Source of the DNA: Piromyces finnis finn
Lineage: Eukaryota > Fungi > Neocallimastigomycota
NCBI GenBank assembly: GCA_002104945.1
Contig: MCFH01000056.1
Span: 62,001 to 126,000 of the forward strand
Direction of reading: 5' to 3'
DNA length: 64,000 nucleotides
Part shown: in pieces, positions 1 through 62,601 of the stretch
Layout of the letters: every line of letters begins with the position of its first letter
Position numbering within the stretch: the first letter of the stretch is position 1
Position numbers and translations under genes: made by a program
The notes under the pieces: model-generated
The model's input: the letters and a program-made list of their open reading frames with translations, nothing else
Told to the model about the DNA's origin: nothing
Database searches by the model: none

Positions 1-599
1 TTTTAATTTAAAATTTAAATTACTTCATCTTTATAGGTATTATTAATAGCAGGTAATACAAATAGTAGTCTATATAAATTACTTTGTAAAAAAAACTAAA
101 TATATAAATTTTATTATCAAATATTATTTTTCTTTTGTTATTAGATGATAATGGAAAATAGTAAGAACAAGCGAAAAAAAAAAAAAAAAAAAAAAAAACA
201 GTTTATTGCCGAAATGACAGTTAATATAGAGTTAAGGTTTTTTATGGTTTATAATATTTATATTGTTTTTTTAACTTTGAAAAAAGTATTAATGATTTTA
301 ATCATAAAATCAAGCTTTTCTTTTTTTTTTATTAATAATATGATATAGATAAATTAAAATGTACGATAAACTTTTAAAGGGTAGGAGGTTAGGGGTTAAT
401 AATATGTTTTATTTATATTATTATTACTCAAAAATTTCTCATGGTTTAAATAATAAATTAGTTTATTTTTACGAAAATGTTATTGATTATAAAGATTATG
501 CAGTTTCAAATCAACTTTTTTTAACCAGTAGAATAAATATTTTAGACAAAAATAAAACAATAAGTAAATGTAAAGATATCAAACGCCTCAGCATGATAT

Positions 600-1144
600 T
601 GTAACGCGTATCTATATAAGTATTTAATAATGTGGTAATTAATAAACTTTATATAGATAATAATTTTGATCCCAATAAGTCAATTAATTTTATTTATTAA
701 AATTTTTAATTATTTTTTATTTAAATTATTTTTTAATAATAAATATTTTTTTTTTTTTTTAAAATTTAAAAGTTAAAAGTTAATAGTTAATAAAAACACA
801 ATTTTTTTAATTTTCGATTCAAACCACTTCTATTTATACTTTTTCTAAATCTGATGTGGCTAAATCAAAAATTTTAATTATCTTTCTAGATTGTTCTTTA
901 AATTAAAAATTGCATAAGATGAATCCCGTGATAAAATTACAAAAAATATTTGATTTTTCGAATATTCGAACTTATTCTTTTTCGAATAAGTTCTATAAGT
1001 TTCTATGAGTCGTAAATTAAATTGTTAAATAAATAATCTAAAATAGATTTCGGATCAAGGTGTGAGTCGAACCCGAGTGATCCAGATTAATGTCTTAAAT
1101 ACTAACCATTAAGACAATATTAATTATCTAATAGATTCGTTACA
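600..1144 (-). repeat. 3' LTR of E1 (545 bp)
   Basis: Direct repeat of 6017-6560; the only difference I saw is poly-T length. Confidence 0.96.
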
Positions 1145-1420
1145 TGGTCTTCCTCCAGGATTCGGATACCAGACGAATCTTTGGATTCATTTTATGTTTT
1201 ATTACAATAATAATTTTTTTAAGCTATATAATTACTATATAATTAAACTATACTAATTGAATTACAATAAAATAATTTTTTTTTTTTTTTTTTTTTACAT
1301 TATACATTTAATATTAAATACATGCTTAAAGAAAATCTAAAATTTAAGAAAATTTAAAGAAGTTATTTTTTTTTTTAAATTAAAATTAAAAATAAATTAA
1401 AAATAAAGTTTCTGTTGAAA

Positions 1421-4400
1421 TCATTTCTTTTTATTGAATTCCTTAAGTAGTTCTGGACAATTCAAATTTGTTTCTGGCTCCCAAGATGCTTCAGATATTG
1501 GGTATCCTTTCCATTTAATTAGATATTGGACTTTACCATAATATCTTCTTTTATCCAATATCTCTTCGACTTCAAATTCTTCCTTATTATCCACAATAAC
1601 CGGCGGAGGTGGCGGTTGCTTTCTATTGAACTTGTCTTCATGGTAGGGTTCCAATTCTGAAACGTGGATGACTGGATGAATGCGAATTTCTTTTGGTAAC
1701 TCCAATTTGAAAGAAACTGGAGAAATTTTTTCAATTATTTTGTACGGACCAAGTTTTCTAGGTTTTAACTTCTTATTACCATTACGCATTATTAAAGAAC
1801 TGTTGATCCATACTTTATCATTTACCTTGAGTTCAGGGGCTTTACTTCTGTGTTTGTTTGCGAATTTTTCTTGTTGATTAATGGATTTCTTCAAGTTATC
1901 TTTAAGAGTTTTAATTATTTCTTTGAAATTTCTTGTGAATTCATCCGCAGTTGGTATCTCGGTACGACTTGGTAAAATTGGAGAATGTTTTGGATTATAG
2001 CCATAGTTAGCAAAAAATGGTGAAGTTTTGGTAGATTCTTGAACGGCATTATTGTAACTAAATTCAGCAAGATGTAAGAACTTGTACCAGTTAGAGCCTT
2101 TATAATTTGAGTAACACCTTAGGTATTGTTCTACAACGGAGTTTACCCTCTCCGTCAACCCGTTTGTTTGGTGATGGTAGGAAGAAGAAAATTTTAGGTT
2201 TATATCAAAAGATTTGCAAATTGAATTCCAGAATTTAGAGGTAAATTGAGTACCTCTATCCGAAAGAATTTCATTTGGTAATCCATGGAGACGAAAAACG
2301 TTGATCATGAAAGCATCAGCAGTATCGGAGGCAGAAGGGATGTTCTCAAAAGGAATGAAGTGGCATAATTTAGTTAATCTATCGGTGACTACAAGAATGC
2401 AAGTATACTTTTGGGAAAGTGGGAGATCCGTAATAAAGTCCATAGATAAGGAAGACCAAGGACGTTCAGCAATTTCCAAAGGGGAGAGAAATCCATAGGG
2501 TTTGTGTCGAGAATCCTTTGATCGGCAACATATTTCGCAAGACCTAACATATTCTTTGACATCGACTGAGAGATAAGGCCACCAAAAGTCACGAACAATA
2601 AGGGAAGTAGTTTTCTTTAATCCGAAGTGTCCAGCGGAGGGTGAGTCATGGCAAATTTTAAGAACTTCCAAACGACAATCTTGGGGGACATAGATCCTAT
2701 TATTGAATAATAATACACCATCTTGAATTTTAAAGTTTTCGATTTGCGAATGAGGGACTGGGGGAATTTGAGTTTCTAAATATTTGCATACTTCAAAGTA
2801 AAATTTATCATCTTTGCTATTTGAAATGATTTTATCCATAAGGGGATTGTTATCCAGAACCATGGCACAAAAGTTTTCGGGTCTAAGGACGGAATTTGGA
2901 ATGTCATTGTTATACTTAAAATTTTCTAAGTAATCTGGTCTTCTAGATAAAGCGTCAGGTTTACCATTAGCAGAACCCGACCGATAAACGATGATAAAGT
3001 TAAACTCGGCAAGGAACAAAGACCAACGAACTAATCTTTGAGTCATTTTTTCGGGTTTCTTCTGGTAGAGCAAATTTCTATGATCCGAGAAAATCTTGAA
3101 AGGCTGAGTAGTTCCTTTGAGTAGATGTCGCCAAGTTTCTAAAGCAGCTACAATTGCTAAAAGTTCTTTATCGTAGATCGGATAGTTCCTTTCAGAAGAA
3201 CTAAGCGATCTAGAGAAAAATGCCACTGGATGAACCGACTTGTCTTTTGGATTCGTTTGTGAAAGGATTGCTCCTATAGCGAAATTACTTGCATCCGTTT
3301 CAACTATGAAAGGTATATCACGATTCGGGTATGCAAGAACAGGGGAAGAAGCAAATTTGGATTTGATTAAACTAAAAGAATTTTCACACTGATGAGAGAA
3401 GCAGAATTTAACATCCTTCTTAAGTAACGCATTCAGTGGTTGTGCGATCTCAGCAAAACCGGCAATGAATCTTCTATAATAATTAGCTAACCCAAGAAAC
3501 GCTTGAACCTCTTTAACGCTTTTAGGAGTTGGCCATTCCAAGATAGATGCAATTTTCTTTGGATCCATTAAAATACCTTCAGAAGATATACGATGACCTA
3601 AGAAATCGATAAATGGGACAAAGAACTCACATTTTTCAAGTTTTGCGTAAAGTCCCGCTTTTCTAAGTCTTTTAAGTACTTCTTTAACCTGGATTACATG
3701 GGTTTTAAAATTTTCCGAGAAAATTATTAAGTCATCAATATAACTAAAGACAAATATTCCCAAGATTCCCTCAAGCACATCATTAATGAAATGTTGAAAT
3801 ACTGCAGGTGCGTTTTTCAAACCAAACGGCATTACAGTATATTCAAAGTGTCCATATTTGCAAGTAAAAGCAGTTTTGAATTCATCACCTTCTTTGATCC
3901 TCACAAGATTGTAAGCTGATCTTAAATCAAGTTTGGAGAAGATGTTGCTTTTACCTAGATGTTCCAACATGTCATTAATTAATGGTAAAGGGTATGAATC
4001 ACGGATTGTGATTTCGTTTAATTTCCTATAATCTTGACATAGACGTAGTTCACCATTTTTCTTCGGGACAAAAAGCACTGGGGCACCAGCCGGAGACTTC
4101 GAAGGTCTGATGAAACCTTTTCGCAAATTTTCATCAATGTATTCCTTCAATACCATTGATTCTTTATCCGTTAAAGGATAAATTGGTCCATAGAAAAGTT
4201 TGGAGTCCGGCTTAAGACGGATTTCACAATCGTATTGCCTATGTGGCGGCAATTGTTCAGCGGCTTTTTCATTAAATACATCTTCAAAGGCTTGAAGTTC
4301 AGCGGGTAGAATAACTTCTTGATTACTAGAAGTGTTAGTGGTGGAATCTTGACTTTTTGGAAGATTTGTTACAGAATCATGGATATAAGAATTGGTTGAA

Positions 4401-4612
4401 GTGCTACAAGAAGGTTTGGAATCATTAGAAATAGAAGAAATAACATAAGTAGGGGCAACATTTGGAATGACAGAGCAATGTGACAAACAGAAATTTGAAT
4501 TAAAAGATAATTCTTTTTCAACGAAGTTAATATTAGGGTTGTGCTGATGTAACCATTCAGCACCTAAGATACCACAATATCCCGGGAGGTCTACAATATA
4601 AAATATAGTTTT
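1421..4612 (-). CDS. pol: E1 pol: C-terminal part of protease, RT (YIDD), RNase H ([12 protein letters not shown]), integrase (HHCC, SDRGTQF), canonical chromodomain
   Basis: ORF track 1421-4486. The frame stays open upstream to 4612 ([21 protein letters not shown]). C-terminus FEVEEILD...YLIKWKGY...SWEP is a chromodomain. Confidence 0.95.
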
Positions 4613-5656
4613 TCATTGGTGGTTTTTGTATTTAATTGAAATTGGGATGGATTTACCTAAGACTTGTTGTTCCCCACCAATACCAGAGATTTTGTCGAGA
4701 GAGACGGATTTATCAAAAGGAATGTTGTTTTCTTCTGCAAAGACCACATCTATTATGTTAAGTTGGGATCCTGAATCAATTAGTAGTTTAGTGTTAACGG
4801 AGACGTCGGAAGTATTGAGTTGGAACTCAAAAACTGGTTGTTTCAAATGGGGATTATCGGAGAATCTTATTCTAGGTTTCTTTTCAGGCATAGAATTAGA
4901 AATATGAGTCCCAGCTGTTTTTTCATTTTTACTTCTTTTTGGACAGTTGTTTAACTTGTGATCTGGAGAACCACAATATAAACAGAGATTCTCCTTAATT
5001 CTTCTAGCCTTTTCTTCTGAGGTAAGCGGTCCGTAAGTTTTCTTATTTCTCGAAGTGAAAGGTTTTCTATTTGCTTCAGTTCTTCGGTTTTGATTGGTGC
5101 TATTAGAGTGATTGTTGTTGAAAAATCTTCTATTAGTATCGATTCTAGAATCGATTCTTGATGCTATAACTTGTAAATTTAGTAGCGTTTGTGGACCGGG
5201 AAACATTTCTAAAATTCTATTGGCGACTTGATCTTGTAGTCCAGCTAAGAAGGCGTCCATTTTTGCACTTTCGTTCCAAGAGGAGTCATCAGAGTATCGG
5301 TTAAATTCAAGAATATATTTTTGAATTTCTCCGATTTTCCTTTGCTTTATAGTTCGAAGCTTTTGATTAGCCACAAATGTTGAGTCGTTGTTGCCAAACA
5401 CAGATTTAAGCTTTGCAACAAATGAGTCATAATTTAATAGGCATTCGTCATGGTTGTGAATTAATGATGCAGCCCAATTCAAGGCTTCACCATATAGTCT
5501 TGAAATAATATAGACGATTTTTGCTTCGTCATCCGCGTAGCGCTCTGGGTAGACCATAAAGATTAATTCTATTTTGGCGAGAAAACCCTTAAAGAAACGA
5601 CGATTTCCAGCGAAACCATCCTTCAACGTAGCATGGTTCATCAATTCTTCATCCAT
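4613..5656 (-). CDS. gag: E1 gag (capsid, CCHC knuckle CLYCGSPDHKLNNC) plus protease N-half (LIDSGS), ending at an in-frame TGA
   Basis: 347-aa ORF in the same frame as pol, separated from it by a single TGA (CAA TGA AAA). Confidence 0.92.
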   Translation of the reverse strand: MDEELMNHATLKDGFAGNRRFFKGFLAKIELIFMVYPERYADDEAKIVYIISRLYGEALNWAASLIHNHDECLLNYDSFVAKLKSVFGNNDSTFVANQKLRTIKQRKIGEIQKYILEFNRYSDDSSWNESAKMDAFLAGLQDQVANRILEMFPGPQTLLNLQVIASRIDSRIDTNRRFFNNNHSNSTNQNRRTEANRKPFTSRNKKTYGPLTSEEKARRIKENLCLYCGSPDHKLNNCPKRSKNEKTAGTHISNSMPEKKPRIRFSDNPHLKQPVFEFQLNTSDVSVNTKLLIDSGSQLNIIDVVFAEENNIPFDKSVSLDKISGIGGEQQVLGKSIPISIKYKNHQ

Positions 5657-5711
5657 ATTCTTTATTTTATTGAAAATATCTAATTTTAATTCAATTTAAT
5701 CGTATAATATA

Positions 5712-5800
5712 TCCAAGAGAGTCCAAAAGAGTCCAAAAGAGTCCAAAAGAGTCCAAAAGAGTCCGAGAGAGTCCAAGAGTCCAAGAGAGTCCAAAAGAGT
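5712..5800. repeat. Tandem GAGTCCAAAA-type ~10-mer repeats in the E1 5' leader
   Basis: About 8-9 imperfect units visible directly. Confidence 0.9.
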
Positions 5801-6016
5801 TGTAAAACAATATACAAAGGTAGTGTCTATTGCCTAGAGAAAAAATAAAGGAGTAAACAGAAGTAGTATCTAAAGTAGCAAAACAGAAAAGTACAAAAGT
5901 CAGGTAGATACTAATATACAAGTGGATATTTAAACCAAGGGTAGACACTATAACAGGTAGGAAAAATAAACAAATTAATTAAGGTAAAGGGAATATGTTA
6001 CAACTGGTGTTTTTAT

Positions 6017-6560
6017 TGTAACGCGTATCTATATAAGTATTTAATAATGTGGTAATTAATAAACTTTATATAGATAATAATTTTGATCCCAATAAGTCAA
6101 TTAATTTTATTTATTAAAATTTTTAATTATTTTTTATTTAAATTATTTTTTAATAATAAATATTTTTTTTTTTTTTAAAATTTAAAAGTTAAAAGTTAAT
6201 AGTTAATAAAAACACAATTTTTTTAATTTTCGATTCAAACCACTTCTATTTATACTTTTTCTAAATCTGATGTGGCTAAATCAAAAATTTTAATTATCTT
6301 TCTAGATTGTTCTTTAAATTAAAAATTGCATAAGATGAATCCCGTGATAAAATTACAAAAAATATTTGATTTTTCGAATATTCGAACTTATTCTTTTTCG
6401 AATAAGTTCTATAAGTTTCTATGAGTCGTAAATTAAATTGTTAAATAAATAATCTAAAATAGATTTCGGATCAAGGTGTGAGTCGAACCCGAGTGATCCA
6501 GATTAATGTCTTAAATACTAACCATTAAGACAATATTAATTATCTAATAGATTCGTTACA
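6017..6560 (-). repeat. 5' LTR of E1 (544 bp)
   Basis: Direct repeat of 600-1144, lying upstream of gag on the minus strand. Confidence 0.96.
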
Positions 6561-7311
6561 GATATCTTTAATGTAACTTAAGCCATAAATATTATTGTTT
6601 AAGTTACACGAATTATTACAGAAAAAGAAAATGAAACATAATTTATTTATTAATATTAAAAGTTTAAAACAAAATAAATTAAATTTCTCAATTTAATTTC
6701 TTAGTTTTAGTATTGTTTTTGATAGAAAAAGATGAATAGTATATAAATAATAAATGATTAATATATAAATAATACATGGGCACATATTCAAATTAAATAG
6801 TACTTGATTTGAATTGCCTATTTTATTTTACTAAAATAATTATAGTTTAAATATTTTATTAATAATTAAGATTTTAGCATAGGGTTTAAATAATAATGAA
6901 TAAATAGTTATAATAATATAAATGTATTTAGGAAAAATATAAATAGAAGATATTTTTCATCATTTTATCAATTTAATTGTTATTAAAAATTCTATTCTTT
7001 CAGTGTCTGCTTTACAGTAAATCTAAAGTATTGAAAAATAAAAGTAAGTTTAACTTTAGATATATTAGTAATGTATTAGTAACGTATAATAGTTTCATAT
7101 GTTCTAGGAATATTAATAAACAATAATTTTTTTTTAATTTAATTAACTACATTTAATAGAATAAATTTATTTGGATTTCCAATAATTAGTTCTATGTTAT
7201 TGTAAATATAATTTTTTATAATCATATAATTTATACGATTCATTAATATTAAGAGTTGACATAATGTAAAATAATAACCAAGATATTCTAACAGTTCGAG
7301 AGTCTCTGACC

Positions 7312-7860
7312 GTTGTTCCAGTTTTTATCCTTATTTTTAAGGCATTTCCTTAGTATACATAAGGCTTCTGGTTTGATCACGCAGATGTCAGTGTTCGTAG
7401 ATTTCCCCCATTGAATTTTGCTATGGGTTTGGTTATGATATTCATAAGTATTAATGAACTTTCTAATTTACTACTATGATATTAGCACTCATCTAACCGA
7501 CCTGAGAGGGTCAAAATATACATATTACATTGCAAATTAGAACCTTATAATTGGTGACTTAGGCTATACCAAATACACAACCAACATTCTTTAATCTATT
7601 TAAGTGTAAACATTAGGGGGCGTTTGTCACGTGATCAAAATTGACTATATGAGGCTTAGTATTATAGTTGGAAATATCGTACAACGACATGCATCTAATG
7701 TACATGGATTAAGTGAGCGTGGAAGCTGAAGATTCGGTATGACAGACCAGAAGGGTCACAACCATCTAGCAATAGGGAAGAGCCAACGTTTCTCTAAGAA
7801 CCACCATTGGAGCTTATTCTGATTGATGGGAGAAATGAACTAGGAAATTAAAAACAAAAA
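7312..7860 (+). mobile_element. SINE-like retroposon, diverged full-length copy
   Basis: Colinear with the reverse complement of 36090-36624 over about 540 bp. Ends GATGGGAGAAATGAACTAGGAAATT plus an A-rich tail. No clear TSD. Confidence 0.8.
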
Positions 7861-13952: not shown

Positions 13953-14541
13953 TGTCAGGAGTTTGTAGAATAGGTTGAATTATTTTATTATTAAATAAAG
14001 TTTGATAAAAATTTTAGGAAAGACAATAGTAAAAATTTATTAAAAATTTATTTAAGAGTTTTTTATTAATAATTTGAATTTAAAATTAAATTTGATTTTT
14101 TATTAACATTTAAAAGTGGACTTTTTATAAGTCAAATAATAAAAGGTTTTATATAAAATTGAAAATAATTCTCAATTGAAGCTTAACTAATTATTTTTTC
14201 TTTAACTATTTATACTAAAGCTTCAATTGAGGCTTTACAATTATTTTAATTTTTATTAATAATAATTAAATTAATAATTAAATAAAAATAATTAATAATA
14301 AAAATTATAAAATTAATATTACTTCGAGAAGGTGTTATAGTTCTTTTACTAAACTAAACTATTTATTCTTCTAAATTTTTCTATTTATTTATTACTAATA
14401 ACTAATGTATTAATAATTAAGATTCTTCTACAAAAATTATTTTATTATTTATTATTAATTAAAGTTAATTATAACAAAAATTTCACTTAATGTAATGTAA
14501 CGTATTGATAATGTCCCTTCTCAAAGACGGATTCCAGACGT

Positions 14542-19288: not shown

Positions 19289-20092
19289 TTTAATCTTACT
19301 GAGAATAGTTAAGTGTACGGTAGTTATAATAATCCAAGGTATTCTGTTAAAGTAGAATTGAGAATTATTATCAGGAGTTTGTAGAATAGGTTGAATTATT
19401 TTATTATTAAATAAAGTTTGATAAAAATTTTAGGAAAGACAATAGTAAAAATTGAGAATTATTTTCAATTTTATATAAAACCTTTTATTATTTGACTTAT
19501 AAAAAAGTCCACTTTTAAATGTTAATAAAAAAATCAAATTTAATTTTAAGTTCAAATTATAATTAAAAAACTCTTAAATAAATTTTTAATAAATTTTTAC
19601 TATTGTCTTTCCTAAAATTTTTATCAAAGAGTTTTTTAATTATAATTTGAATTTAAAATTAAATTTGATTTTTTATTAACATTTAAAAGTGGACTTTTTT
19701 ATAAGTCAAATAATAAAATGTTTTATATAAAATTGAAAATAATTCTCAATTGAAGCTTAACTAATTATTTTTTCTTTAACTATTTATACTAAAGCTTCAA
19801 TTGAGGCTTTACAATTATTTTAATTTTTTATTAACAATAATTACTAATAATTACTAATTAAATAAAAATAATTAATAATAAAAATTATAAAATTAATATT
19901 ACTTCGAGGTGTTATAATTCTTTTACTAAACTAAACTATTTATTCTTCTAAATTTTTCTATTTATTTATTACTAATAACTAATTTATTAATAATTAAGAT
20001 TCTTCTACAAAAATTATTTTATTATTTATTATTAATTAAAGTTAATTATAACAAAAATTTCACTTAACGTAATGTAACGTATTGATATAAGG

Positions 20093-20905: not shown

Positions 20906-21576
20906 TTAAGTTTGAGGGGGAGTGAAAGAATATAATTCAGCTAGAACTTAAATTACTAATAAAAATTTATATTACTAATATTAAACTTTAATTAATAATA
21001 AAATTAGTAATATAAATTAGTAATTACATTATAATTTTATTATTAATTAAAGTTTAATATTGGCCGTTTTAGCCAGACTTTTTAGCCAGAAGAAATTTGA
21101 CCTCAGGCAGAAGTTTAGCCAGGAAAATTTAGTAATCTGGCAAAAATCTAGGCTTTATGGATCAAGAAATCTAGGTCATACTAAATTCCTGGTTATGTAT
21201 TTTTTCCCGAGCAAGATTAGAGCAGAAAGAATTTGAGGAAGCGTAAGCTTTCCTAATTCGTTAGGGCATATGTAATGCCCGTGGCATGTCGCCGCTCGGG
21301 TTATATCTATGGGAGGCCTTGTTCTTGGTAGGCAAAGTTGGTACCAGTCTCTAATAGTGGGGGACAAGAGTGCATCATAAGGGAGAAATACCAGGCAAGA
21401 TCAAGTGCATTATAAAGGGTAAAGGAGAAATACCTGGTATGGTTAAAGGGATAGATGCACTATAGTAACACACAAAAAGTGCATCATAAAAATAAAAACA
21501 AAAAGCATGTGCCACAATTAAAAAAGATAGATTCACTGTAATGGGAGACAAAATATTATGGGAGACATTTAGGTTA

Positions 21577-21999
21577 CACATAATTTTTCTTGGTGTTGTA
21601 TACTTATAAAATGATCTTATTAAACATGTGGATTTTTTAGATGTAAAAAATCCTTACATGTTACATCACATAATTTTTCTTGGTGTTGTATAGTTATAAA
21701 ATGATCTTATTAAACATGTGGATTTTTTAGATGTAAAAAATCCTTACATGTTACATCACATAATTTTTCTTGGTGTTGTATAGTTATAAAATGATCTTAT
21801 TAAACATGTGGATTTTTTAGATGTAAAAAATCCTTACATGTTACATCACATAATTTTTCTTGGTGTTGTATAGTTATAAAATGATCTTATTAAGCATGTG
21901 GATTTTTTAGATGTAAAAAATCCTTACATGTTACATCACATAATTTTTCTTGGTGTTGTATAGTTATAAAATGATCTTATTAAACATGTGGATTTTTTA
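21577..21999. repeat. 90-bp tandem array with internal palindrome (5 units; the 5th is split by E2 and E3)
   Basis: Units start at 21577, 21667, 21757, 21847 and 21937. The remainder of unit 5 is at 28669-28677 and 34952-34980. Confidence 0.95.
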
Positions 22000-22807
22000 T
22001 GTAAAATATTCTATTCTAAGTTCAGGTTTGTATACACTAAATCAAACTAACACTAGTTATAAATTTATTTATTATTAAACTTTATTTATTTATTAAATTA
22101 TATTAAACTAAACTAAACTAAAACAACCGTTGATTACTTTACCGTGAAGGATATTTTACCAGAGCCCTCACTAGGTAATCAATTTATATTTATTTAAAAC
22201 TAAAATTATTAATCTAAACTATAAACTAATTATAAACTAATGTTAATTTATCTAAACAACATTAACCTATACGATTTTCCAACTATCGTTTCAATAGTTG
22301 AAAAATTTTCTTTATTTATACTTTTTAAATAAATTGAATAAATTCTAATATACATGTTTTAATATTATAATTTTACATTGTTTACATTTATACATTTATT
22401 AAAAGAAATTATTTGTATTAAACTATTTAAATTCAATTTATTTACTACAGAATTTTCTAAACTTAAAATAAAGTTTTGATTTATTTACTATATGGTTGAT
22501 TATATTTCAAACATATATTCAATTTATTTATTTCTAATTTTGAGGCTTAGTTTATAAAAAAAATTTTTTATTATCTAAAATATTTATTGGTTAAAATTTA
22601 TTTAATTTAAAATTTTATTTTATCATCAAAAACTTTATCTTATCATAAAATTATATTTTACATAAATTTATGTTAATGTATTGTGATATAAATTTTTGTA
22701 ATTAAAAAATAAAATTTACGGTACATTAATTTAATACATTATACATTATTTTAAATACGTATTAAATACATTATTCTATTAATACAATATTTTACATGCC
22801 CCTCTTC

Positions 22808-27454: not shown

Positions 27455-28687
27455 CTTGACTATTCCTAATTATTTTATTCTTATATTAAATAAATAATTT
27501 AACAACCTTATTATTATACTATACTAACCTTTTTATTATTTACTACTACTAAACTAACAACTAGTTATTAACCAAACTAATATATTTTTATTATTACTAT
27601 TTATTGATTATTAACTATTAAACTATTTTAACAACAAATTATTCTATACCAAATAATTATAAAATACCCCGAAATTAACTAAAATTAATTTCTAACAAAA
27701 AAATTTTTTTTTTTTTTTTTTTTTTTTAATATTAATATATTTTAGATAATCCCCGAATTTAATTCTATTATTAAATTCTCACTATAATTAATTTTTTTTT
27801 TTTTTATAATATTATTTTCTATTACTATTCTTATACAAAGGTGAACTTCCTATTCTAATAAGTTGGAAAATTGTAAAATATTCTATTCTAAGTTCAGGTT
27901 TGTATACACTAAATCAAACTAACACTAGTTATAAATTTATTTATTATTAAACTTTATTTATTTATTAAATTATATTAAACTAAACTAAACTAAAACAACC
28001 GTTGATTACTTTACCGTGAAGGATATTTTACCAGAGCCCTCACTAGGTAATCAATTTATATTTATTTAAAACTAAAATTATTAATCTAAACTATAAACTA
28101 ATTATAAACTAATGTTAATTTATCTAAACAACATTAACCTATACGATTTTCCAACTATCGTTTCAATAGTTGAAAAATTTTCTTTATTTATACTTTTTAA
28201 ATAAATTGAATAAATTCTAATATACATGTTTTAATATTATAATTTTACATTGTTTACATTTATACATTTATTAAAAGAAATTATTTGTATTAAACTATTT
28301 AAATTCAATTTATTTACTACAGAATTTTCTAAACTTAAAATAAAGTTTTGATTTATTTACTATATGGTTGATTATATTTCAAACATATATTCAATTTATT
28401 TATTTCTAATTTTGAGGCTTAGTTTATAAAAAAAATTTTTTATTATCTAAAATATTTATTGGTTAAAATTTATTTAATTTAAAATTTTATTTTATCATCA
28501 AAAACTTTATCTTATCATAAAATTATATTTTACATAAATTTATGTTAATGTATTGTGATATAAATTTTTGTAATTAAAAAATAAAATTTACGGTACATTA
28601 ATTTAATACATTATACATTATTTTAAATACGTATTAAATACATTATTCTATTAATACAATATTTTACATTTTAGATGTGTAATGAAT

Positions 28688-30711
28688 TGTAGTAATTTCT
28701 TATTATTGTTTACAGAAATTACTATCTACAATAATATTAACGAATAATATTGTAGTATTATTATGCGGAAATAAGAAGTATTGAACAAATTAGAATAGAA
28801 AATAGAAAGTAAAAATAAAACTTATCGAGTTTATTATAAAGATTTATAATAAACAACCAAACACAAAGAGTCAAATGGGTCGTAAGTTTTTTTAGTTAAA
28901 TTACTGATTTATTAGAAGGATATTTTATTTAATTAAAAAGAAAAATGTATTTATGTTATTTATTATAACGTATTCCTTTATAATAATAACTCTTGAATTT
29001 CTAAGGAATTTCAAGAGTGTTTTATTTATAATTTTATTAAAAAATAAGGTTAAATAAACGGGTTCTAATCTTAACAAATAAAATGTTTAGGAAAAGACTA
29101 GAAGAAAAACCTAAACATGATTTTCGATCAATATTCTAGTCATATTGATCTTCGTGTAATTTTAAGTAAAACCGAATGCTTCTTTAAAGCGAAATCGGGA
29201 AAACCTTAAAATTCCGATTCCTATTTTATCCGTGCTTAATACAATACATAAAATATAATTAATACATAATTTAAAACAATAAGTGTAATGAATATAGTTA
29301 GTCAAAATTAAATGTATAAGATAAATAATAAGTAAATAAATTATTTATATTAATTAAATGTACATAAAAATTAATAATTAAATAAATTTATAAAGTTAAT
29401 TAAATATATAAGAATATAGCAAGTAAATAAATTTTATATTTTATATAAGTGTATATAAAATTAATATTTTAAGTAAATCATAAGTATTAACTAAATGAAT
29501 GAAATATTAAATAATTTAATAAATTATTAGTAATAGTTGAATGTATAGAAAATAATAATTTAAATAAATTTGTATTAAATAATAAGAAATAATAATTATT
29601 CAATTATGAATAATTAATATTTCTTATATGATGATGCGTTGACCGATATATTTTTGAATAATATAATATTTTATATAAATAATAAATTCTAATATTTATG
29701 ATGAAACAATAAATTTAAAATAAAATAAAATATGTTTTATAATTAACAAATAAATCACTCAAAAACTCGAAAATAAACTCTTTTTATTATGTTTAAATTA
29801 TCTCTTTATTATATTTATAATTTATTTATTGTCTATTTATTGTCCCCCCTTTATAAAGAAGAATTTTATCTTCCTTTTATACATTTTCATTTATTACATG
29901 TATTATTATTTTTAACTATTAAATGTTATTATTACTATTGTTATTATTTATTAAAATTAAAAGAATAAATTAAAATTATGTCTTAGTATTATAAAATATT
30001 ATAGAATATTACTTATTTGATTTTCTTATTACTTCAAAATGTTTAAATTTAGAAAAATTATTATAAATTATCATTGACTATCATTAAATGTATAATACCT
30101 TGAATAAAATAATTAAAATTTAAAATTAAAATAATATTAAAATAAAATTAAAATGAAATTAAAATATTAAAAGTATCAATTATTATAAACACTCATTTTA
30201 TACAGAAACATAAAAGAGTTCTGTATTTTATCTTTGAAATTGTTATTATTGTTCTATTTCCAGGCTTTAAATTAATCACTTTTAGTAATAATTACTCAGT
30301 TATTTATTTGTTAATTTATATATATAAGTTTGAAAGAATTTCTAAAGAACACTTGGATAAAACACTAGAATTAATAATTTAATGTATATCATTTTATTTT
30401 TTTTTAGTTTATTTATTCATTTTTATTTACTTATTATTATTTTATTATTTTAATACATTTTTGGATTGAGTCGTTTTATTTTATTTAATAATTTATTTTA
30501 TTATTATCTCTATTAAGTCGTTTTTTTATTCATAATTTATTATTTAATAAAGAGAATATTATTTATTTAAAAGAAAGGGTTATATTTCCATAAAATTATT
30601 ATTTATTCATTTTTAAGGGTTATTATCTTTTATTTTTATTATAAGTCGCTATGGGTTAAGTCGTGTTTATTCGGCTAGTTTTTATTACGTTTTTATGTGA
30701 GTAGCGTATCA
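28688..30711. mobile_element. Non-coding 2024-bp TG...CA insertion (possible large solo LTR) inside the E3 5' LTR
   Basis: Starts TGTAGTAATT and ends GTAGCGTATCA. Flanked by duplicated ATGAAT at 28682-28687 and 30712-30717. The right ~770 bp recur at 46376-47127. Confidence 0.75.
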
Positions 30712-31151
30712 ATGAATACTAGAAATAACTAAATTGTCTTAGTGGTTAGTAGCTAAGACTTTGAGTCTGAATGACACTAGTTCGAGACCTCATAGATACT
30801 ATTTTAAAAAAATTATAATTTTATTTTATTTTATTTTATTTTATTTTTAAATTTTATTTTATATGAAGATTATTGATTGGTTAAGAATTTTAAGTTGAAA
30901 AAATTTTATAAATTAATTTAAAAAATTTTTAGTATAAATACGAGTGAATTTTCCCAAATATTTTAAAGAATCGAGATTTTATTAATAAATAATTATATTA
31001 TTAAACACTAACTTATTAAGTTAAATTCTATGTGTTTTTAATAATATTTTTATAAATTAATAATTTACAGAATATTTTAAAGTGTTAATATTACTAAGTT
31101 ATTTAGTAAATATTATAATTTGTTTTATTGTTAAAGACACATTTCTTTACA

Positions 31152-34100
31152 CTAAGAAGTCTTCTGTTAACTTTTCTACTTCGTCTCTCTCAAATCAAGA
31201 ACCAACTTCTGTTTTGACTTCTTTTTCTGATTCTAATATTCAATCCAATTCTATTCTCAAATCCGATTCAAACTCTAAATCAGAACCCAATTCTTCTATT
31301 ATACTTCCGGATGTTCTTTCTGACTTTGCTGATGTCTTCAATGAATCTAATGCTGAAAAACTTCCTCCACACCGTCCATACGATTGTGAAATAAAACTCA
31401 AAGAAAATTCAAAACTGTTTTATGGACCGATTTATCCTCTAACAGAAACCGAATCAATTGCTTTAGAAGAATATATAAAAGAAAATCTCAAGAAAGGATT
31501 TATTAGAAAATCAAAATCGCCTGCGGGAGCTCCTATTCTGTTTGTACCTAAGAAAAACGGTCAACTTCGTATGTGTGTTGACTATCGCCAATTAAACTCC
31601 ATAACTATTCGTGATTCTTATCCCCTTCCTCTTATACAAGATATGCTTGAACATCTTGGAAAAGGGAAGATTTTCTCAAAATTGGATCTTCGTTCTGCCT
31701 ATAACTTGGTCAGGATTAAAAGTGGTGATGAATATAAAACCGCTTTTACTTGCAAGTTAGGTCATTTTGAATACTGTGTGATGCCTTTTGGGTTGAAAAA
31801 TGCACCTGCTGTTTTTCAACATTTCATTAATGATGTTCTTGAAGACGTTCTTGGTAAATTCGCTTTCTCTTACATAGATGATATTATTATTTTTTCCTCT
31901 GATTATAAATCTCATATATCTCATGTCAAAACTGTTTTGAAACTCCTGAGGGATGCTGGGCTCTATGCTAAATTGGAAAAATGCGAGTTCTTTGTTTCTT
32001 TTATTGATTTCCTTGGTCATAGGATTTCTACTGATGGTATTCACATGGACCCAAATAAAGTTTCTTCTATTTTAAACTGGCCTACTCCATCTAATGTTAA
32101 AGAGGTTCAATCTTTTCTTGGTCTTGCGAACTACTACCGTCGATTTATTCCAAATTTTGCAAAGATCGCTCATCCTTTGCATAAACTTTTGAAGAAAAAT
32201 GTTAAATTTGTATGGTCTAAAGAAGCTCAAGATGCTTTCGATTCACTCAAGTCCTTATTTGTTTCTGCTCCTGTTCTTATATTTCCTAATCGTGAACTTC
32301 CATTCATAGTCGAAACTGATTCAAGTAACTTTGCCATTGGTGCTATTCTCTCGCAAGTCTCTCCAATTGATAATATGACCCATCCAGTTGCTTTCTTTTC
32401 TCGCTCTCTTACTGGTCCTGAACGTAATTATCCAATATATGATAAAGAGCTCTTAGCTATCGTTGCTGCTCTTGAAACATGGCGTCATCTACTTAAAGGC
32501 TCTTCTTCTACTTTTAAGATTTACTCGGATCATCGAAATTTACTCTATCAAAAGAAACCTGAAAAAATGTCTCAACGTCTTGTTCGCTGGGCTTTGTTTC
32601 TCTCTGAATTTAACTTTGTTATTATTTATCGTTCTGGTTCTTCTAACGGTAAGCCTGATGCTCTATCTCGTCGTCCTGATTATGCTATCAATTCGAATTC
32701 CTCTTCTGATGTTCCTTTTAATGTTCTTCGCCCTGAAAACTTTTGTGCCATTGTGACTTCTGTTTCGTCCATTAGTGATTCTTTTCTTTCCGAATATATA
32801 AATGATGACTTTTACAATAAAATCTGTGAATATCTTGATTGTAGGAAACCTCCAATACCTCACCCTCAAATTGACAAATTTTCCTTAAGCAATAGTTTTC
32901 TCCTTTTTACTGACAGAATCTATGTTCCTCCAAATTGTCGTCTTTCAATTCTTAAACTCTGTCATGACTCTCCTTCAGCTGGTCATTTCGGAATAAAGAA
33001 AACATCTTCTCTTATTGCTAGAGACTTCTGGTGGCCTTCTATTTCTTCTGATGTTAAAGACTACGTTCGTTCTTGTGAAGTTTGTTGTCGTTCAAAAACC
33101 TTTCGTCATAAACCTTATGGTCTTCTGAATCCTCTTGATATTGCTGAGCGTCCTTGGTCATCCATTTCAATGGATTTCATTACAGATTTGCCTTCATCTT
33201 CTGGTTTCACTTGCATTCTTGTTGTTGTTGATCGTCTTACAAAAATGGTTCATCTCATTCCGTTCAAAAGTATTCCTTCCGCCGCCGAAACAGCCACAGC
33301 CTTTATTGATAATATTTTCCGTTTTCATGGCCTACCTGAATCTATTGTCTCGGATAGAGGTTCTCAATTTACCTCTAAATTCTTCCAATCCATCTGTTCC
33401 TCCCTTGGCATTGAACTTAAGTTGTCTACTCCATTTCATCATCAATCAAACGGTCAGACGGAGAGGGTGAACTCCGTTATAGAACAATATTTAAGATGTT
33501 TCTCAAATTATAAAGGTTCAAATTGGAAAAGTTTTCTTAGTCTTGCAGAATTTAGTTATAACAACGTGGTCCAAGAATCATCCAAATTTTCTCCATTCTT
33601 TTTGAATTACGGCTTTCATCCAAAATATTCACCAGTTATTCCAGACTTATCTAAAGTCCCAAGAGCAGAAGAGTTTACAAGAGATTTTAAAACTTTAATT
33701 AATACCTTAAAAGAAAATTTAAAATCTGCCATGGAAACCCAGAAGAAGCATGCTGACAAACGTAGAAAAGAAGCTCCGAATTTTAAAGTTGGTGACAAAG
33801 TTTGGCTGGATAGTTCTTTAATTATCCACAAAGGAAATAAAAAATTTAAGCCAAGAAAACTCGGCCCATACAAAATCTTGGAAAAAATATCAAATGTTAC
33901 ATTTAAATTAAGTCTCCCAAAATCTATTAAGATTCATCCAGTTATTCATGTATCCAATCTCGAGAAATATGTCGAAGATAAATTTGGAAGATCTCAACCA
34001 CCACCGCCACCTATTACCGTTGACAATGAAGAAGAATACGAAGTTGAAGAAATTCTGGATAAAAGAAGACATTACGGAAAAATACAATACCTGATTAAAT

Positions 34101-34192
34101 GGAAAGGGTATTCAATCAATGAAGCTTCGTGGGAGCCTGAAGAAGATCTAAATTGCAAGGGGCTACTTAAAAAATTTAATAGAAAGAAATAA
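31152..34192 (+). CDS. pol: E3 pol: Ser-rich linker, RT, RNase H, integrase, canonical chromodomain
   Basis: The ORF track start (31082) lies inside the LTR. Real internal sequence begins at 31152. Clearly the same clade as E1 pol. Confidence 0.92.
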
Positions 34193-36047
34193 AAAATAGT
34201 TAAAAAATTCAAATTATATTTATTATTAATATTAAAATCACAATTATTATTATTATCAAAACTTATTAATATCATTATCAATATCAATTTTATTATTAAA
34301 CAATTTATTAATATCAAATTTATCAATATTTTATTTTTAACTTTAGTAATATTAAAAAAAAAAAAATGTATTTTATTATATTAAATGTATTTTTATAATT
34401 AAGAAAATTCACTCCTTAGTTTAGTTTATTAAAAAAGAAAAACATATATTTAAATATTAAAATTCTAGATTCGTCTGGTATCCGAATCCTGGAGGAGGAC
34501 CATGTAATGAATACTAGAAATAACTAAATTGTCTTAGTGGTTAGTAGCTAAGACTTTGAGTCTGAATGACACTAGTTCGAGACCTCATAGATACTATTTT
34601 AAAAAAATTATAATTTTATTTTATTTTATTTTATTTTATTTTTAAATTTTATTTTATATGAAGATTATTGATTGGTTAAGAATTTTAAGTTGAAAAAATT
34701 TTATAAATTAATTTAAAAAATTTTTAGTATAAATACGAGTGAATTTTCCCAAATATTTTAAAGAATCGAGATTTTATTAATAAATAATTATATTATTAAA
34801 CACTAACTTATTAAGTTAAATTCTATGTGTTTTTAATAATATTTTTATAAATTAATAATTTACAGAATATTTTAAAGTGTTAATATTACTAAGTTATTTA
34901 GTAAATATTATAATTTGTTTTATTGTTAAAGACACATTTCTTTACAAGATGTAAAAAATCCTTACATGTTACATCACATAAAATACTTTAAGACACAATC
35001 TTAACCCTATTAATAAATATATAAAATTATGTGTAACCTAAATGTCTCCCATAATATTTGTCTCCCATTACAGTGCATCTATCTTTTTTAATTGTGGCAC
35101 ATGCTTTTTGTTTTTATTTTTATGATGCACTTTTTGTGTGTTACTATAGTGCATCTATCCCTTTAACCATACCAGGTATTTCTCCTTTACCCTTTATAAT
35201 GCACTTGATCTTGCCTGGTATTTCTCCCTTATGATGCACTCTTGTCCCCCACTATTAGAGACTGGTACCAACTTTGCCTACCAAGAACAAGGCCTCCCAT
35301 AGATATAACCCGAGCGGCGACATGCCACGGGCATTACATATGCCCTAACGAATTAGGAAAGCTTACGCTTCCTCAAATTCTTTCTGCTCTAATCTTGCTC
35401 GGGAAAAAATACATAACCAGGAATTTAGTATGACCTAGATTTCTTGATCCATAAAGCCTAGATTTTTGCCAGATTACTAAATTTTCCTGGCTAAACTTCT
35501 GCCTGAGGTCAAATTTCTTCTGGCTAAAAAGTCTGGCTAAAACGGCCAATATTAAACTTTAATTAATAATAAAATTATAATGTAATTACTAATGTAATGT
35601 TTCTTAGAATAATCGTAGCATATAAAATAAAATTATAATGTAATTACTAATGTAATGTTTCTTAGAATAATCGTAGCATATAGTATTACTAATTGACATT
35701 AGCCACATATTTTAGTATAAAAAGAAATTGTAAATGTATTATCAAAATCTTTGTAATTACCTTTATTAAATTAAATTTAATAAACATAATAAATAAACTT
35801 TATCAAACCTAAATTTACTTTTCATAAACAAACGCTAGTATCATTATTATAGTAACTATTTTTAATCATTTCAACATATTTCTAATATTAAATACATTTA
35901 AAAATTATAAAAAATTGTTTTTTGAATTACTATTATTTTTTCAATAAATGAAATAATACTAATTATTAATCTTTTTTTTTTACATAATTTGATTATATTT
36001 ACATGGTTTTGATTAAGTTTGTAAATATAATTTTAATATTACTTTTT

Positions 36048-36050
<3 letters not shown>

Positions 36051-36092
<42 letters not shown>

Positions 36093-36624
36093 TTCCGAGT
36101 GCATTTCTCCCATCGATCAGAGTTAGCTCCAATGGTGGTTCTTAGAGAAACGTTGGCTCATTCCTATTGCTAGGTGGTTGTGACCCTCCTGGTCTGTCAT
36201 ACTGTTTCTTCAGCTTCGACGCTCACTTAATCCATGTACATTAGATGCATGTCGTTGTACGATATTTCACAACTACAATGCTAAGCCTCTTATAGTCAAT
36301 TTGATCACGTGTCAACCGCCCCCTAATGTTTACACTTAAATTGATTAAGGAATATTATGTGTTTTTGGCATAGCCTAAGTCACCACTTATTAAGTTCTAA
36401 TTTGGAATGTACCATGTACACTAGACCCTCTCAGGCCGGCTAGACGAGTGTTATTATCATAGTAGTAAATTAGAAAGTTCATTTATACTTACCTGAATAT
36501 CATAACCCAACCCATGGCAAACCCAGTGGGAAAATCCACAGGCACTGACATCTGCGGGGTCGAACCAGAAGCCTTATGTATGCTAAGGAAACGCCTTAAC
36601 AACCAGGATAAAAACTGGAACGAC
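36051..36624 (-). mobile_element. Full-length SINE-like retroposon (535-bp body plus 39-nt poly-A) with tRNA-like head
   Basis: TSD ATTACTTTTTAAT at 36038-36050 and 36625-36637. B-box GGTTCGACCCC at 36556-36566. Homologues at 7312, 24685 and 43368. Confidence 0.88.
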
Positions 36625-42516: not shown

Positions 42517-43367
42517 GGTAATTGAAATATTCATGAATAATTATCCTAATCGGTGAAATCTTTCCATTTTTCAAGTAAAAGTTGACATCTTTAATTTGAT
42601 GATAGAATTTACCATAAAGATTTTTTAAAATACAAAGAGTATCATTATACCAGAAATAGGATGACTATAAATATCAAAACATCATAACAAATAATATTAT
42701 TATCAAATATTATATTTGAAACAAGATATTTTCTAAAAAGTATTATTATCTGTGGAATTTTTATTAAAAGGATTTATTCAGATAGATTTATAACTTTATT
42801 TTGAAAAGGAATCTGAATGTTTTTTTAGAATAAAAAAAATTTAAAGATTCCTACTCAAAATAAAGTTCAAGAAAAAAAAAGGCATAATAATAAAAATATT
42901 ATTAAATACTATTTAATAAGGTTTGATTTTCATATTAAAAGTTTTTTTTAATTTAATTGTGATTCATTTAAATTAAAAGTTAAATATATTAAATTTTCCT
43001 TTTTTAGTAATTAATTTTTTAAAAAAAATAAAACATTTTATGTGATTTATGTGATATATACAACTCGGTTCATTGTACTCAGGCTTTGTGGTTGACTTAT
43101 ATACTTTATAAATTATTCAAATACATACTTAATATGATTGTAAGAATATCTTCTCCTAATTATTATAATTCTTAGATAGAGACTCGTTTACTCTATTTTC
43201 TACTAATTTATACCAAAATCTAACTATAAAATTCGTTTATTTTTATCTGTTTATATTAAATACTCTAATTACTATAAATACTTTAATTATCACATGCTTA
43301 TAAAAATATGATAAATACATTAATGTACTAAATAAAATGTACTAAAAAAACTACATTATAATCTATT

Positions 43368-43595
43368 GTCGTTCCAGTTTTTATCCTGGTTGTTAAGACG
43401 TTTCCTTAGCATATATAAGACTTCTGGTTTGACCACGCAGATGTCAGTGTTTGTGGATTTTTGATAATAACACTCGTCTGAAAGGGTCAAAATATACATA
43501 GTACATTTCAAATTAGAACTTTATAATTGGTGACTTAGGCTATGCCAAATACACAAGCAAAATTCCTTGATCCATTTAAGAGTTAAAAAAAAAAT
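43368..43595 (+). mobile_element. Internally deleted SINE copy with poly-A and TSD
   Basis: Starts GTCGTTCCAG like the full copy and ends AGTT plus A11. TSD ATTATAATCTATT at 43355-43367 and 43595-43607. Confidence 0.87.
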
Positions 43596-46375: not shown

Positions 46376-47127
46376 TTATTATTTATTAAAATTAAAAGAA
46401 TAAATTAAAATTATGTCTTAGTATTTTTAAATATTATAGAATATTACTTATTTGATTTTCTTATTACTTCAAAATGTTTAAATTTAGAAAAATTATTATA
46501 AATTATCATTGACTATCATTAAATGTATAATACCTTGAATAAAATAATTAAAATTTAAAATTAAAATGAAATTAAAATATTAAAAGTATCAATTATTATA
46601 AACACTCATTTTATACAGAAACATAAAAGAGTTCTGTATTTTATCTTTGGAATTGTTATTATTGTTCTATTTCCAGGTTTTAAGTTTATCATTTTAGTAA
46701 TAATTACTCAATTAGTTATTTTCTTAATTTATAAGTTTAAGAGAATTTCTAAAGAACACTTGGATAAACACTAGAATTAATAATTTGATGTATATCATTT
46801 TATTTTTAGTTTATTTATTCATTTTTATTTATTTATTATTATTTTATTATTTTAGTACATTATTGGATTAAGTCGTTTTATTTTATTTAATAATTTATTT
46901 TATTTAATAATTTATTTTATTATTATCACTATTAGGTCGTTTTTACTCAGAATTTATTATATAATAAAGATAATATTATTTATTTAAAGAAAGGGTTATA
47001 TTTTCATAAAATTATTATTCATTCATCTTTAAGGGTTATTATTGTTTATTTTTATTATAAGTTACTATGGGTTAAGTCATGTTTATTCAGCTAGTTTTTA
47101 TCATATTTTTATGTGAGTAGCGTATCA
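46376..47127. mobile_element. Left-truncated second copy of the 28688-30711 element, ending 15 nt upstream of tRNA-iMet
   Basis: Colinear with 29941-30711 and has the same GTAGCGTATCA end. Confidence 0.85.
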
Positions 47128-47142
47128 CAAAATCTAACAGGA

Positions 47143-47214
47143 AGCAGCGTAGCGCAGTGGAAGCGTGGTGGGCTCATAACCCACAGGTCGTATGATCGAA
47201 ACATACCGCTGCTA
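47143..47214 (+). tRNA. tRNA-iMet(CAT): Initiator tRNA-Met (CAT), copy 1
   Basis: Perfect cloverleaf with A1:T72, three consecutive G:C pairs in the anticodon stem, and an A54 T-loop (GATCGAAA). A T-run follows. Confidence 0.97.
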
Positions 47215-47311
47215 ATATATTTTCATTTTTATTAATATAAAAAAAATAAAAATATATAATAATAATAATAATAATATTAAAACACAGATAGTTAAAAATT
47301 ATAAATGTAAA

Positions 47312-48636: not shown

Positions 48637-48708
48637 AGCAGCGTAGCGCAGTGGAAGCGTGGTGGGCTCATAACCCACAGGTCGTATGATCGAAACATAC
48701 CGCTGCTA
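48637..48708 (+). tRNA. tRNA-iMet(CAT): Initiator tRNA-Met (CAT), copy 2
   Basis: Identical to copy 1, with homologous short flanks. Confidence 0.97.
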
Positions 48709-49118
48709 AAATATTTTCATTTTTATTAATATAAAAAAAGCCATTAAAATAGCATAGTAATTAGTTAAAATTATATAATCTAATATTTAAAATGTATGAT
48801 AGTTTTTATTTTAAAATTATTAATATTTTTATTGTAATAATTAAAAAAAAAAAAAAATTCAAATTAAAAAATAATAATATCTATAGTTGTTATTTGTTTT
48901 ATACAAATCTTTAAAATATTCTAAATATATATATGCGTATATTTTAGGTGATTATTTATTTATGAATGGAAAATTGAAAATTGCTATGATGAGATTCTTA
49001 TAGTATTAAAATGTTTTTTTTTTTTTTTTCATTTTTTTCTATTATCATTAGATAACTTGATAATTAATATTTTAAATAAACTATTTAAAAAATAAAGTAG
49101 TATTTCATATAAAATTTT

Positions 49119-60771: not shown

Positions 60772-62055
60772 CTAGCGTAAATAAACTAAATAGAGGTAGA
60801 CGGTAGCCATGGAAATAGAAAGAACCATCATTGGGAAGGCTTCAACAAAGAATTTCTTAAAGGAAATCTTGTGACCTTGTTTTTTGGATAATCCAACAGC
60901 AATTACATTTGCACTAGCACCAACAATGGTACCGTTACCACCTAAGCAGGCACCCAAAGATAAAGCCCACCATAATGGAGTTAAATTCATGTGAGAAGCT
61001 TTACCGATTTCCTGAATTAATGGTATCATAGTGGTAACGAATGGAATATTATCGATAAAGGCAGAGGCGAAAGCAGAGACCCATAAAATAGAAAAGGTAG
61101 TTAATACTAAATTACCATTTGTAATATCCAAAACAAAATGAGCCAATTTATCGATAGCACCAACAACCTTTAAACCACCAACTAAGATGAATAATCCAAC
61201 AAAGAAGAGGATGGTACCCCATTCGACTTCACTTAAAATTTCCTCAATATTTTCGTTAGAGATAAGTAAGAGTACGGCGGCACCAGTTAAAGCAATAGTG
61301 GCAGATTCAAAACCAAGTACACCGTGTAAGATGAAAGCGATAAAGACTAAAGCAATGACGGCTAAACTTTTCCATAAAAGGGCCTTATTTTTAATCATTA
61401 ATTTTTCATCCTTTTCCATAATTCTTTCCTTTAATTCCTTGACGGTCTTAAGGTGTTTCTTGTAACGAAGAGTGTAAATGGAGATAGAAACAAGAAGAAT
61501 TAATAATACAATACCACCATTATTGATAATGAAGTCCATAAAAGTGAACTTAACAGCACTACCGATCATAATGTTTGGTGGGTCACCAATAAGAGTAGCA
61601 GTACCACCAACATTAGAAGCGAAAACTTCAGCGATAACAATGTATATTGGGTTAATCATTAATTCATCACAAATATTCAAAGTAATTGGAATGATTAACA
61701 TAATGGTAGTAACATTATCTAATAAAGCGGAAAAGATACCAGTAGTCAATGATAAATAAATCATAATTTTTTTTGGACTACCCTTGGCAATCTTTACCAG
61801 TTTTATAGCAACATATTCAAAAATACCACTTCTCTTGGTGATAAGTACTAATATCATCATACCTACTAATAAACCAAGAGTATTGAAATCAACTTCTTCC
61901 ACTGCTACTTCTTGGTTGACAATCTTTAATAAGATCATTAAACAGGCACCACTTAAGGCGACAACTGTTCTATCAAATGTTTCCAATACAATGAAAACAT
62001 AGGTTAATACAAATATCGCAATTGCTAAAATTAATGAAACTGTTTCGTTGAACAT
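60772..62055 (-). CDS. ArsB/NhaD (ion transporter superfamily, P-permease/SLC13-like) membrane permease, bacterial-sized and intronless
   Basis: 427 aa with about 11-12 hydrophobic helices. Family motifs DFNTLGLLVGMM, SALLDNVTT, ASNVGGTATLIGDPPNIMI, SAFIDNIPF and GACLGGNGTIVGASANV. Confidence 0.95.
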   Translation of the reverse strand: MFNETVSLILAIAIFVLTYVFIVLETFDRTVVALSGACLMILLKIVNQEVAVEEVDFNTLGLLVGMMILVLITKRSGIFEYVAIKLVKIAKGSPKKIMIYLSLTTGIFSALLDNVTTIMLIIPITLNICDELMINPIYIVIAEVFASNVGGTATLIGDPPNIMIGSAVKFTFMDFIINNGGIVLLILLVSISIYTLRYKKHLKTVKELKERIMEKDEKLMIKNKALLWKSLAVIALVFIAFILHGVLGFESATIALTGAAVLLLISNENIEEILSEVEWGTILFFVGLFILVGGLKVVGAIDKLAHFVLDITNGNLVLTTFSILWVSAFASAFIDNIPFVTTMIPLIQEIGKASHMNLTPLWWALSLGACLGGNGTIVGASANVIAVGLSKKQGHKISFKKFFVEAFPMMVLSISMATVYLYLVYLR

Positions 62056-62601
62056 TTTTATTGTTTTTTTTTTTTTTTTTTTTACTTTTTAAAAACTATA
62101 TATAATTTTTTTTGATGATATATATTATTTTTTGACTATATAATTTTTTTTTGATTTCAGAGTGACTGACAAATTTAGGTATATTACACTAAAATTACTA
62201 AATTGTTTATACTATATTTTTTTTTAAAATTACTATATAAGATTCGTTTGGTTGGTTCTTTTAACCTAGTTTTTTTTTATCTTTTCTTTAAGCGTGTTTT
62301 TTTTTTATATTCACAAATTGAATTATTTTTTGTTGTTGTTGTTATTTTTATTAAAATTGTTTTTTTTTTAATAATCTAATTATTATTATTTTTTGATTTT
62401 GATTTGGGATTGATTGAAATTGGGTTGTTGTTTTTTTTTTTTGTAAATAATTATTACAAAAAAAAAAATTTTTTTAATTATAATTAGACTTTTTTTTTTA
62501 AAAATGATGTCAATTTTTTAAAAAATTGAAAATTTTATGCTTCTTTTATACTAAAAAAATTTTTATTTTAAAATTTTTGTTATCAAATATTATGAAATAT
62601 T

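Follow-up and report, generated by a model that had tools for sequence, protein, structure and literature searches.

Conserved tRNA-type A and B boxes in the LTR heads of a gut-fungal chromovirus clade, a likely docking site for TFIIIC and TFIIIB

Why would a coding chromovirus carry the promoter boxes of a tRNA gene in its LTRs? This question is raised by a 64,000-nt stretch of the Piromyces finnis genome (contig MCFH01000056.1, positions 62,001 to 126,000; hereafter, the window), in which two elements, E1 and E3, bear an A-box-like motif and a B-box near the start of both of their LTRs. The two elements are laid out as follows:

595..6565, minus strand: E1, a structurally intact chromovirus with LTRs at 6560-6017 and 1144-600 and the target duplication ATATC
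5695-4613, minus strand: E1 gag, followed by an in-frame stop and by pol at 4612-1421
28673..28687, plus strand: true left end of E3, comprising the target duplication AGATG (28673-28677) and LTR nt 1-10
30712..31151, plus strand: the rest of the E3 5' LTR, identical to the 3' LTR
31064..34192, plus strand: E3 pol frame, encoding RT, RNase H, integrase, and chromodomain, in an element without gag or PBS
34503..34951, plus strand: E3 3' LTR (444 bp, TATA-like box at nt 226) and the right target duplication AGATG

In both elements, pol encodes RT, RNase H, integrase, and a C-terminal chromodomain in chromovirus (Ty3/Gypsy) order, and the 5-bp target duplication and TG...CA LTRs of chromoviruses were found, together with a self-complementary PBS in E1 only. 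E1 is ~6 kb long with coding gag and pol, and its two LTRs are 99.8% identical to each other; its PBS has its complement at nt 346 of the element's LTR, which points to self-priming. The E3 LTR begins at 28678, directly after an AGATG that recurs behind the 3' LTR (0.0008 occurrences expected per window by composition). At 31151-31160 in E3, pol directly follows the 5' LTR, the PBS and gag being lost together with most of the protease region; the two LTRs and the target duplication have nonetheless stayed intact. A third cassette-bearing family, L001 (spacing 45; 20.6 bits in the box matrix described below), was found in metagenome contigs using a PPT pattern that excludes the cassette, with one match there and none in viral contigs. 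Like E3, L001 carries pol.

Several other features of the window were observed alongside. In the element E4, 11 nt of the PBS (27855-27871, minus strand) are complementary to the E4 LTR at nt 514, suggesting self-priming as in E1. E4 (duplication TTTTA) and E3 (duplication AGATG) are inserted at overlapping sites (21995-22004, 28669-28677, and 34947-34968) in the centre of a short inverted repeat, itself within a larger one (21013-21587 versus 35023-35596). The LTRs of E5 (14047-14510 and 19620-20087, minus strand) have apparent non-canonical inverted ends, TATCAA...TTGATA rather than TG...CA, and a 300-bp palindrome lies nearby at 19450-19751. A 37-bp stretch with LTR-like inverted ends (6572-6608) is located 11 nt from the E1 5' LTR. 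An unbroken 438-aa frame of the CitMHS/ArsB transporter family, possibly of bacterial origin, occupies 60772-62088 on the minus strand.

The A-box/B-box cassettes of E3 and E1 were located at four positions:

30735..30789, plus strand: cassette of the E3 5' LTR, with tRNA position 8 at 30735, position 53 at 30780, and a spacing of 45
34530..34584, plus strand: cassette of the E3 3' LTR
6479..6532, minus strand: cassette of the E1 5' LTR, with a spacing of 44
1063..1116, minus strand: cassette of the E1 3' LTR

The cassette strings quoted in a preliminary description of this DNA were recovered in both LTRs of each element, from 30735 and 34530 (plus strand) in E3 and from 6532 and 1116 (minus strand) in E1; the start of the cassette, which had been put about 20 nt into the LTR, is corrected to LTR nt 28–29. 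Its reading of the boxes as standing at tRNA spacing held, with 44–45 nt between positions 8 and 53 in the cassettes versus 43–46 in real tRNAs. The usual G preceding the B-box is absent in E3, and the second C of the B-box is absent in E1 and L001. The B-box occupies LTR nt 73–80 and is followed in E1, E3, and L001 by runs of 4–6 T that begin 20–30 nt after it, at nt 95–102. TATA-like boxes were found at LTR nt 226, 307, and 355 in the three families (226 in E3 and 307 in E1). Read from the sequence, an A/B pair at tRNA spacing is the anatomy of a type-2 Pol III promoter, here set in the LTR head. The positions of the B-box, T-runs, TATA-like boxes, and PBS place the cassette in U3 and make Pol III an unlikely maker of the genomic RNA.

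The boxes were scored with an A+B matrix built from 31 real tRNAs, 30 of them from one bacterial genome and one from the window. The cassettes reached 24.2, 20.6, and 20.2 bits in E3, L001, and E1, respectively; the two tRNA genes of the window scored 24.9 bits with the same matrix, but belonged to its training set. The A-box scores of the cassettes were modest (4.6–9.0 bits). Locally shuffled windows contained 0.14 sites of at least 20 bits per 64 kb, and 0 of 2,000 shuffles per LTR head attained the observed matrix score; a single background site, within E1 pol, reached 22.1 bits. The GC content of the window is 14–36%. An A/B pattern search of viral contigs returned 22 loci, including three that ARAGORN called tRNAs and that were left out of the matrix because their use would have been circular, and phage blastn gave chance-level matches only. 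Elsewhere in the window, a SINE-like repeat of ~550 bp, possibly a gut-fungal tRNA-type SINE, occurs at 36079-36624 (minus strand), 7312-7860 (plus strand), and 43355-43586 (plus strand, internally deleted) with 87–90% identity; its B-box is strong (21.5 bits in the copy at 36.6 kb), its A-box weak, and its 3' end A-rich.

The preliminary description had taken the cassette to be derived from a tRNA, and the corresponding tRNA check was negative: neither ARAGORN nor Rfam (RF00005, with matches allowed up to E 10) called any cassette a tRNA. The cloverleaf is absent from the cassettes, with the acceptor stem lost, as had been proposed, and the D stem (1–2 of 4 pairs) and T stem (1–3 of 5 pairs) lost too. 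In E3 alone, TTG is present at the anticodon position, where it sits in a stem with 4 of 5 pairs; the glutamine isotype suggested on this basis is a candidate only, the best of the 31 reference tRNAs (30 bacterial and one from the host, with no host Gln) being Arg(TCG). The tRNA-likeness of the spacer was attained by 11, 166, and 396 of 1,000 shuffles in E3, E1, and L001, respectively. Derivation of the cassette from a tRNA is therefore weakly suggested, because only the E3 spacer is still tRNA-like.

In a quick tree of 21 of the 120 listed proteins plus five elements, E1, E3, and L001 shared one chromovirus clade (SH-aLRT 99), and the cassette was present in all three clade members with a readable LTR. 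E4 and E5 fell outside the clade, and neither the cassette nor the B-box core was found in their LTRs. The two LTR families of the window, E1 and E3, are therefore sisters within this clade and not independent captures. The only named member of the clade is from Orpinomyces; likewise, ~30 protein clusters resemble the E3 integrase region at 64–75% identity, and the sole organism-named one is from Orpinomyces. Contig loose ends from the same organism yielded two further spacer variants, one of them long enough to read and with the B-box core kept. Integrase searches confirmed 0 of 40 candidates in viral contigs and returned three distant loci out of 86 in genome contigs (36–40% identity), which were not counted as relatives.

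Conservation was compared across three full LTR heads. Box columns were invariant at 15 of 17 positions versus 10 of 28 in the spacer between the boxes (Fisher p 0.0007, from three sequences and with boundaries chosen after viewing the alignment). The central proposal of the preliminary description, a selected tRNA-type A/B-box unit in U3, is borne out to this extent, the boxes being more conserved than the spacer in the three sequences. The synonymous sites of E1 and E3 pol are near saturation, with 0.39 of four-fold sites identical against 0.35 at saturation, and the pairs involving L001 gave 0.41–0.47 against 0.33–0.35. Alignment z-scores are 10–20 for the LTR heads and −1.3 to 2.5 for windows further into the LTR. 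The view that the rest of the LTRs cannot be aligned is accurate past nt 90, but the homologous block is wider than the cassette and takes in the LTR leader, with 15 of 27 columns invariant, and a block ending at the PPT:

34467..34502, plus strand: PPT-ending conserved block of 36 nt, with 35 of 36 columns invariant in the three families

The same block lies at 1145-1180 (minus strand) in E1 and at 1981-2016 in L001 and can form a small hairpin; it is conserved more than the cassette, despite the near-saturated synonymous sites.

The E3 5' LTR is interrupted just upstream of the cassette, and the interrupting sequence recurs beside a tRNA gene:

28688..30711, no strand assigned: non-coding TG...CA insert of 2,024 bp within the E3 5' LTR leader, after LTR nt 10
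46376..47127, no strand assigned: repeat X, in which the right 770 bp of the insert recur at 89% identity
47143..47214, plus strand: tRNA-Met(CAT) gene, a real Pol III target, presumably the initiator

The insert is flanked by ATGAAT (28682-28687 and 30712-30717), or by a 5-bp duplication if its end is read one base further, and is likely a solo LTR or a non-autonomous element. The earlier suggestion that the cassette could serve as a landing pad accordingly gains one insertion with a target duplication in the E3 5' LTR. The right end of the insert lies 24 nt before the cassette A-box and 16 nt before its virtual +1, and repeat X ends 23 nt before the A-box of the tRNA-Met gene and 15 nt before its +1, so that the A-box offset is 23–24 nt in both window copies of the insert end. 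The chance of an offset match within 1 nt is ~1e-4 by post-hoc arithmetic (3 offsets × 6 sites / 128,000), which is not a tool result. The left part of the insert is absent from repeat X, the left flanks are unrelated, and no convincing target duplication was found there. No comparable insertion was found at the other three cassettes in the window. In nine contigs with other copies of the insert end, the sequence continued AT-rich with no tRNA start in 30 nt, these flanks being consensus rows with an agreement of ~0.55 among the rows listed; leaders of other cassettes or stacked inserts would also fit. In one row (three contigs), a motif resembling an LTR end abuts LTR nt 8, 21 nt upstream of the A-box, and could reflect either another insertion or LTRs joined in tandem.

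Two candidate histories at these loci were rejected. Insertion of E3 beside a duplicated X-tRNA locus was discarded on finding E3's own left end and duplication at 28673, and the possible end of an element at 48622, 14 nt upstream of the second tRNA-Met gene, showed neither a 5–6 bp duplication nor likeness to X. The two identical tRNA-Met(CAT) genes, 1.5 kb apart (47143-47277 and 48637-48776), have a common 3' flank and different 5' flanks.

We consider it probable, from these sequence comparisons, that an autonomous gut-fungal chromovirus clade keeps A and B boxes in its LTRs as a docking site for TFIIIC and TFIIIB, which targeting elements would read as a tRNA gene. The boxes would go back to a tRNA, or to the head of a tRNA-SINE, acquired before the clade diversified. 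TFIIIC would bind them and set TFIIIB at the LTR edge, and a short Pol III transcript may run from approximately LTR nt 5–15 to the first T-run, at nt 95–200. tRNA genes act as barriers in fission yeast; the bound complex may similarly shield the LTR's Pol II promoter, 150–280 nt downstream, from silencing, and selection would keep the boxes for this reason, which is the least certain step. Insertions of other elements would follow as a side effect, and the genomic RNA would still be made by Pol II and self-primed.

Alternatively, conservation may act on an RNA: a small Pol III product of ~90–190 nt, or two hairpins at the genomic RNA's 3' end that serve in PPT positioning, packaging, or strand transfer, the boxes being kept as its promoter or as hairpin parts. 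We regard this as rather unlikely; it is partly compatible with a docking site. The preliminary description had reported a 7-bp hairpin with one compensatory pair, and both are present in E1 and E3, but covariation was not upheld, with a single two-sided change and a level reached by 169 of 500 shuffles. This first hairpin loops out the A-box in all three families, and a second helix of 5 bp pairs the B-box in all three, with all three of its changes G-U compatible; across the three families, 94% of the cells in the two hairpins over the boxes are paired. An RNA is further favoured by fold z-scores of −2.2 in E3 and −2.7 in L001, by the T-run after the B-box in all three families, and by the nearly invariant block adjoining the PPT. 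Against it stand the covariation, no better than in shuffles, the z-score of −0.5 in E1, and the shift of hairpin 1 in L001, which breaks 2 of 7 pairs in the E1/E3 register and folds in another; moreover, structure alone leaves the fixed 44–45 nt spacing and the insertion offset unexplained. Overall, the hairpins are no more than suggestive of RNA structure.

The cassette might also be a passive relic of a tRNA or SINE that persists through its linkage to the essential PPT-att end, perhaps with some recombination among families, in which case the offset match would be coincidental. That the cassette abuts the conserved PPT/att block, that the tRNA-likeness of the spacer has decayed in two of the three families, and that other copies of the insert end have no tRNA within 30 nt would all agree with a relic, but hitch-hiking predicts uniform decay, whereas the boxes were kept and the spacer was not, and the post-hoc ~1e-4 for an offset match within 1 nt also speaks against coincidence; we judge a relic improbable. 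It is very improbable that Pol III drives the genomic RNA of the element itself or of a short derivative, as in Cassandra or the proposal for Helenus: although the LTRs share the same box anatomy (PMC10886601, available text) and E3 is an internally deleted copy, runs of 4–6 T begin 20–30 nt past the B-box, E1 is a ~6-kb gag-pol element with a TATA-like box and a PBS needing a 5' end near LTR nt 346, and E3 has no PBS.

Among known systems, Cassandra had been put forward as the closest precedent and shares a Pol III promoter borne by the LTR, but this promoter is 5S-derived, in a non-autonomous plant element, and makes the element's RNA (PMC10886601, available text). Helenus/TRIMp3 is closer. 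According to the available text of Kojima 2024 (PMC10886601), its LTRs, also found in fungi, contain a tRNA-like sequence that is conserved at boxes A and B and is not a functional tRNA; Helenus elements are non-autonomous TRIMs of 311–1263 bp with a tRNA-primed PBS, mobilised by Copia elements in fungi (rusts and agarics), and any autonomous partner has to rely on Pol II and probably does not have a long stretch of LTR in common with them. E1 and E3 resemble Helenus in having tRNA-like A/B boxes in both LTRs and differ in their carrier, which is a coding chromovirus (~6 kb with gag and pol in E1, pol in E3) and not a 0.3–1.3 kb non-coding TRIM, and in their priming, the PBS being complementary to the element's own LTR in E1, missing in E3, and tRNA-complementary in Helenus. 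The same text has no match for Neocallimast- or Chytrid-, and mentions other Repbase LTRs with tRNA similarity that were left unanalysed, TRIMs alone being kept; because of this mention, unpublished annotation of such LTRs may exist. A search of mostly open literature turned up no report of A/B boxes in the LTRs of autonomous or gut-fungal elements. PMC3286476 was set aside as a precedent, as its available text concerns tRNA copies at the PBS, not in U3.

On the targeting side, Ty3, Tj1, DGLT-A, and Tca8 insert in their own windows upstream of tRNA genes (PMC5911963, available text), and the 15–16 nt offset observed here falls within the windows of DGLT-A (13–33) and Tca8 (6–30) and next to the Ty3 site. 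Tf1 and Tj1 self-prime, and E1 resembles Tj1 in its self-complementary PBS and its in-frame gag stop (PMC4600332, available text). The targets of these elements are host Pol III genes, in contrast to the present case, and the available texts of PMC5911963 and PMC4600332 describe no target-bearing LTR. In Dictyostelium rDNA, bare A/B boxes without a tRNA gene attract the tRNA-targeting retrotransposon TRE5-A; in that case, the target is host rDNA and not a mobile LTR, and TRE5-A is a non-LTR element that inserts ~47 bp upstream (PMC5391098, available text).

In the literature found, Pol III promoters in LTRs are described only for short non-autonomous elements, and a selected Pol III promoter in an autonomous element of Pol II type would need another function. 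More tentatively than the docking site itself, we propose that this chromovirus lineage may have maintained a functional site for Pol III assembly from a time before its families diverged, seeding gut-fungal genomes with many decoy tRNA genes that could steer tRNA-targeting retroelements, build nested TE clusters, and perhaps shield the lineage's own promoter from silencing. If TFIIIC binds, each LTR would act as a barrier or docking site that moves with its element and redirects the insertion of others, and the cassette would offer a compact cis-element to direct Ty3-like integration, as well as a testable cause of the nested repeat clusters in gut-fungal genomes.
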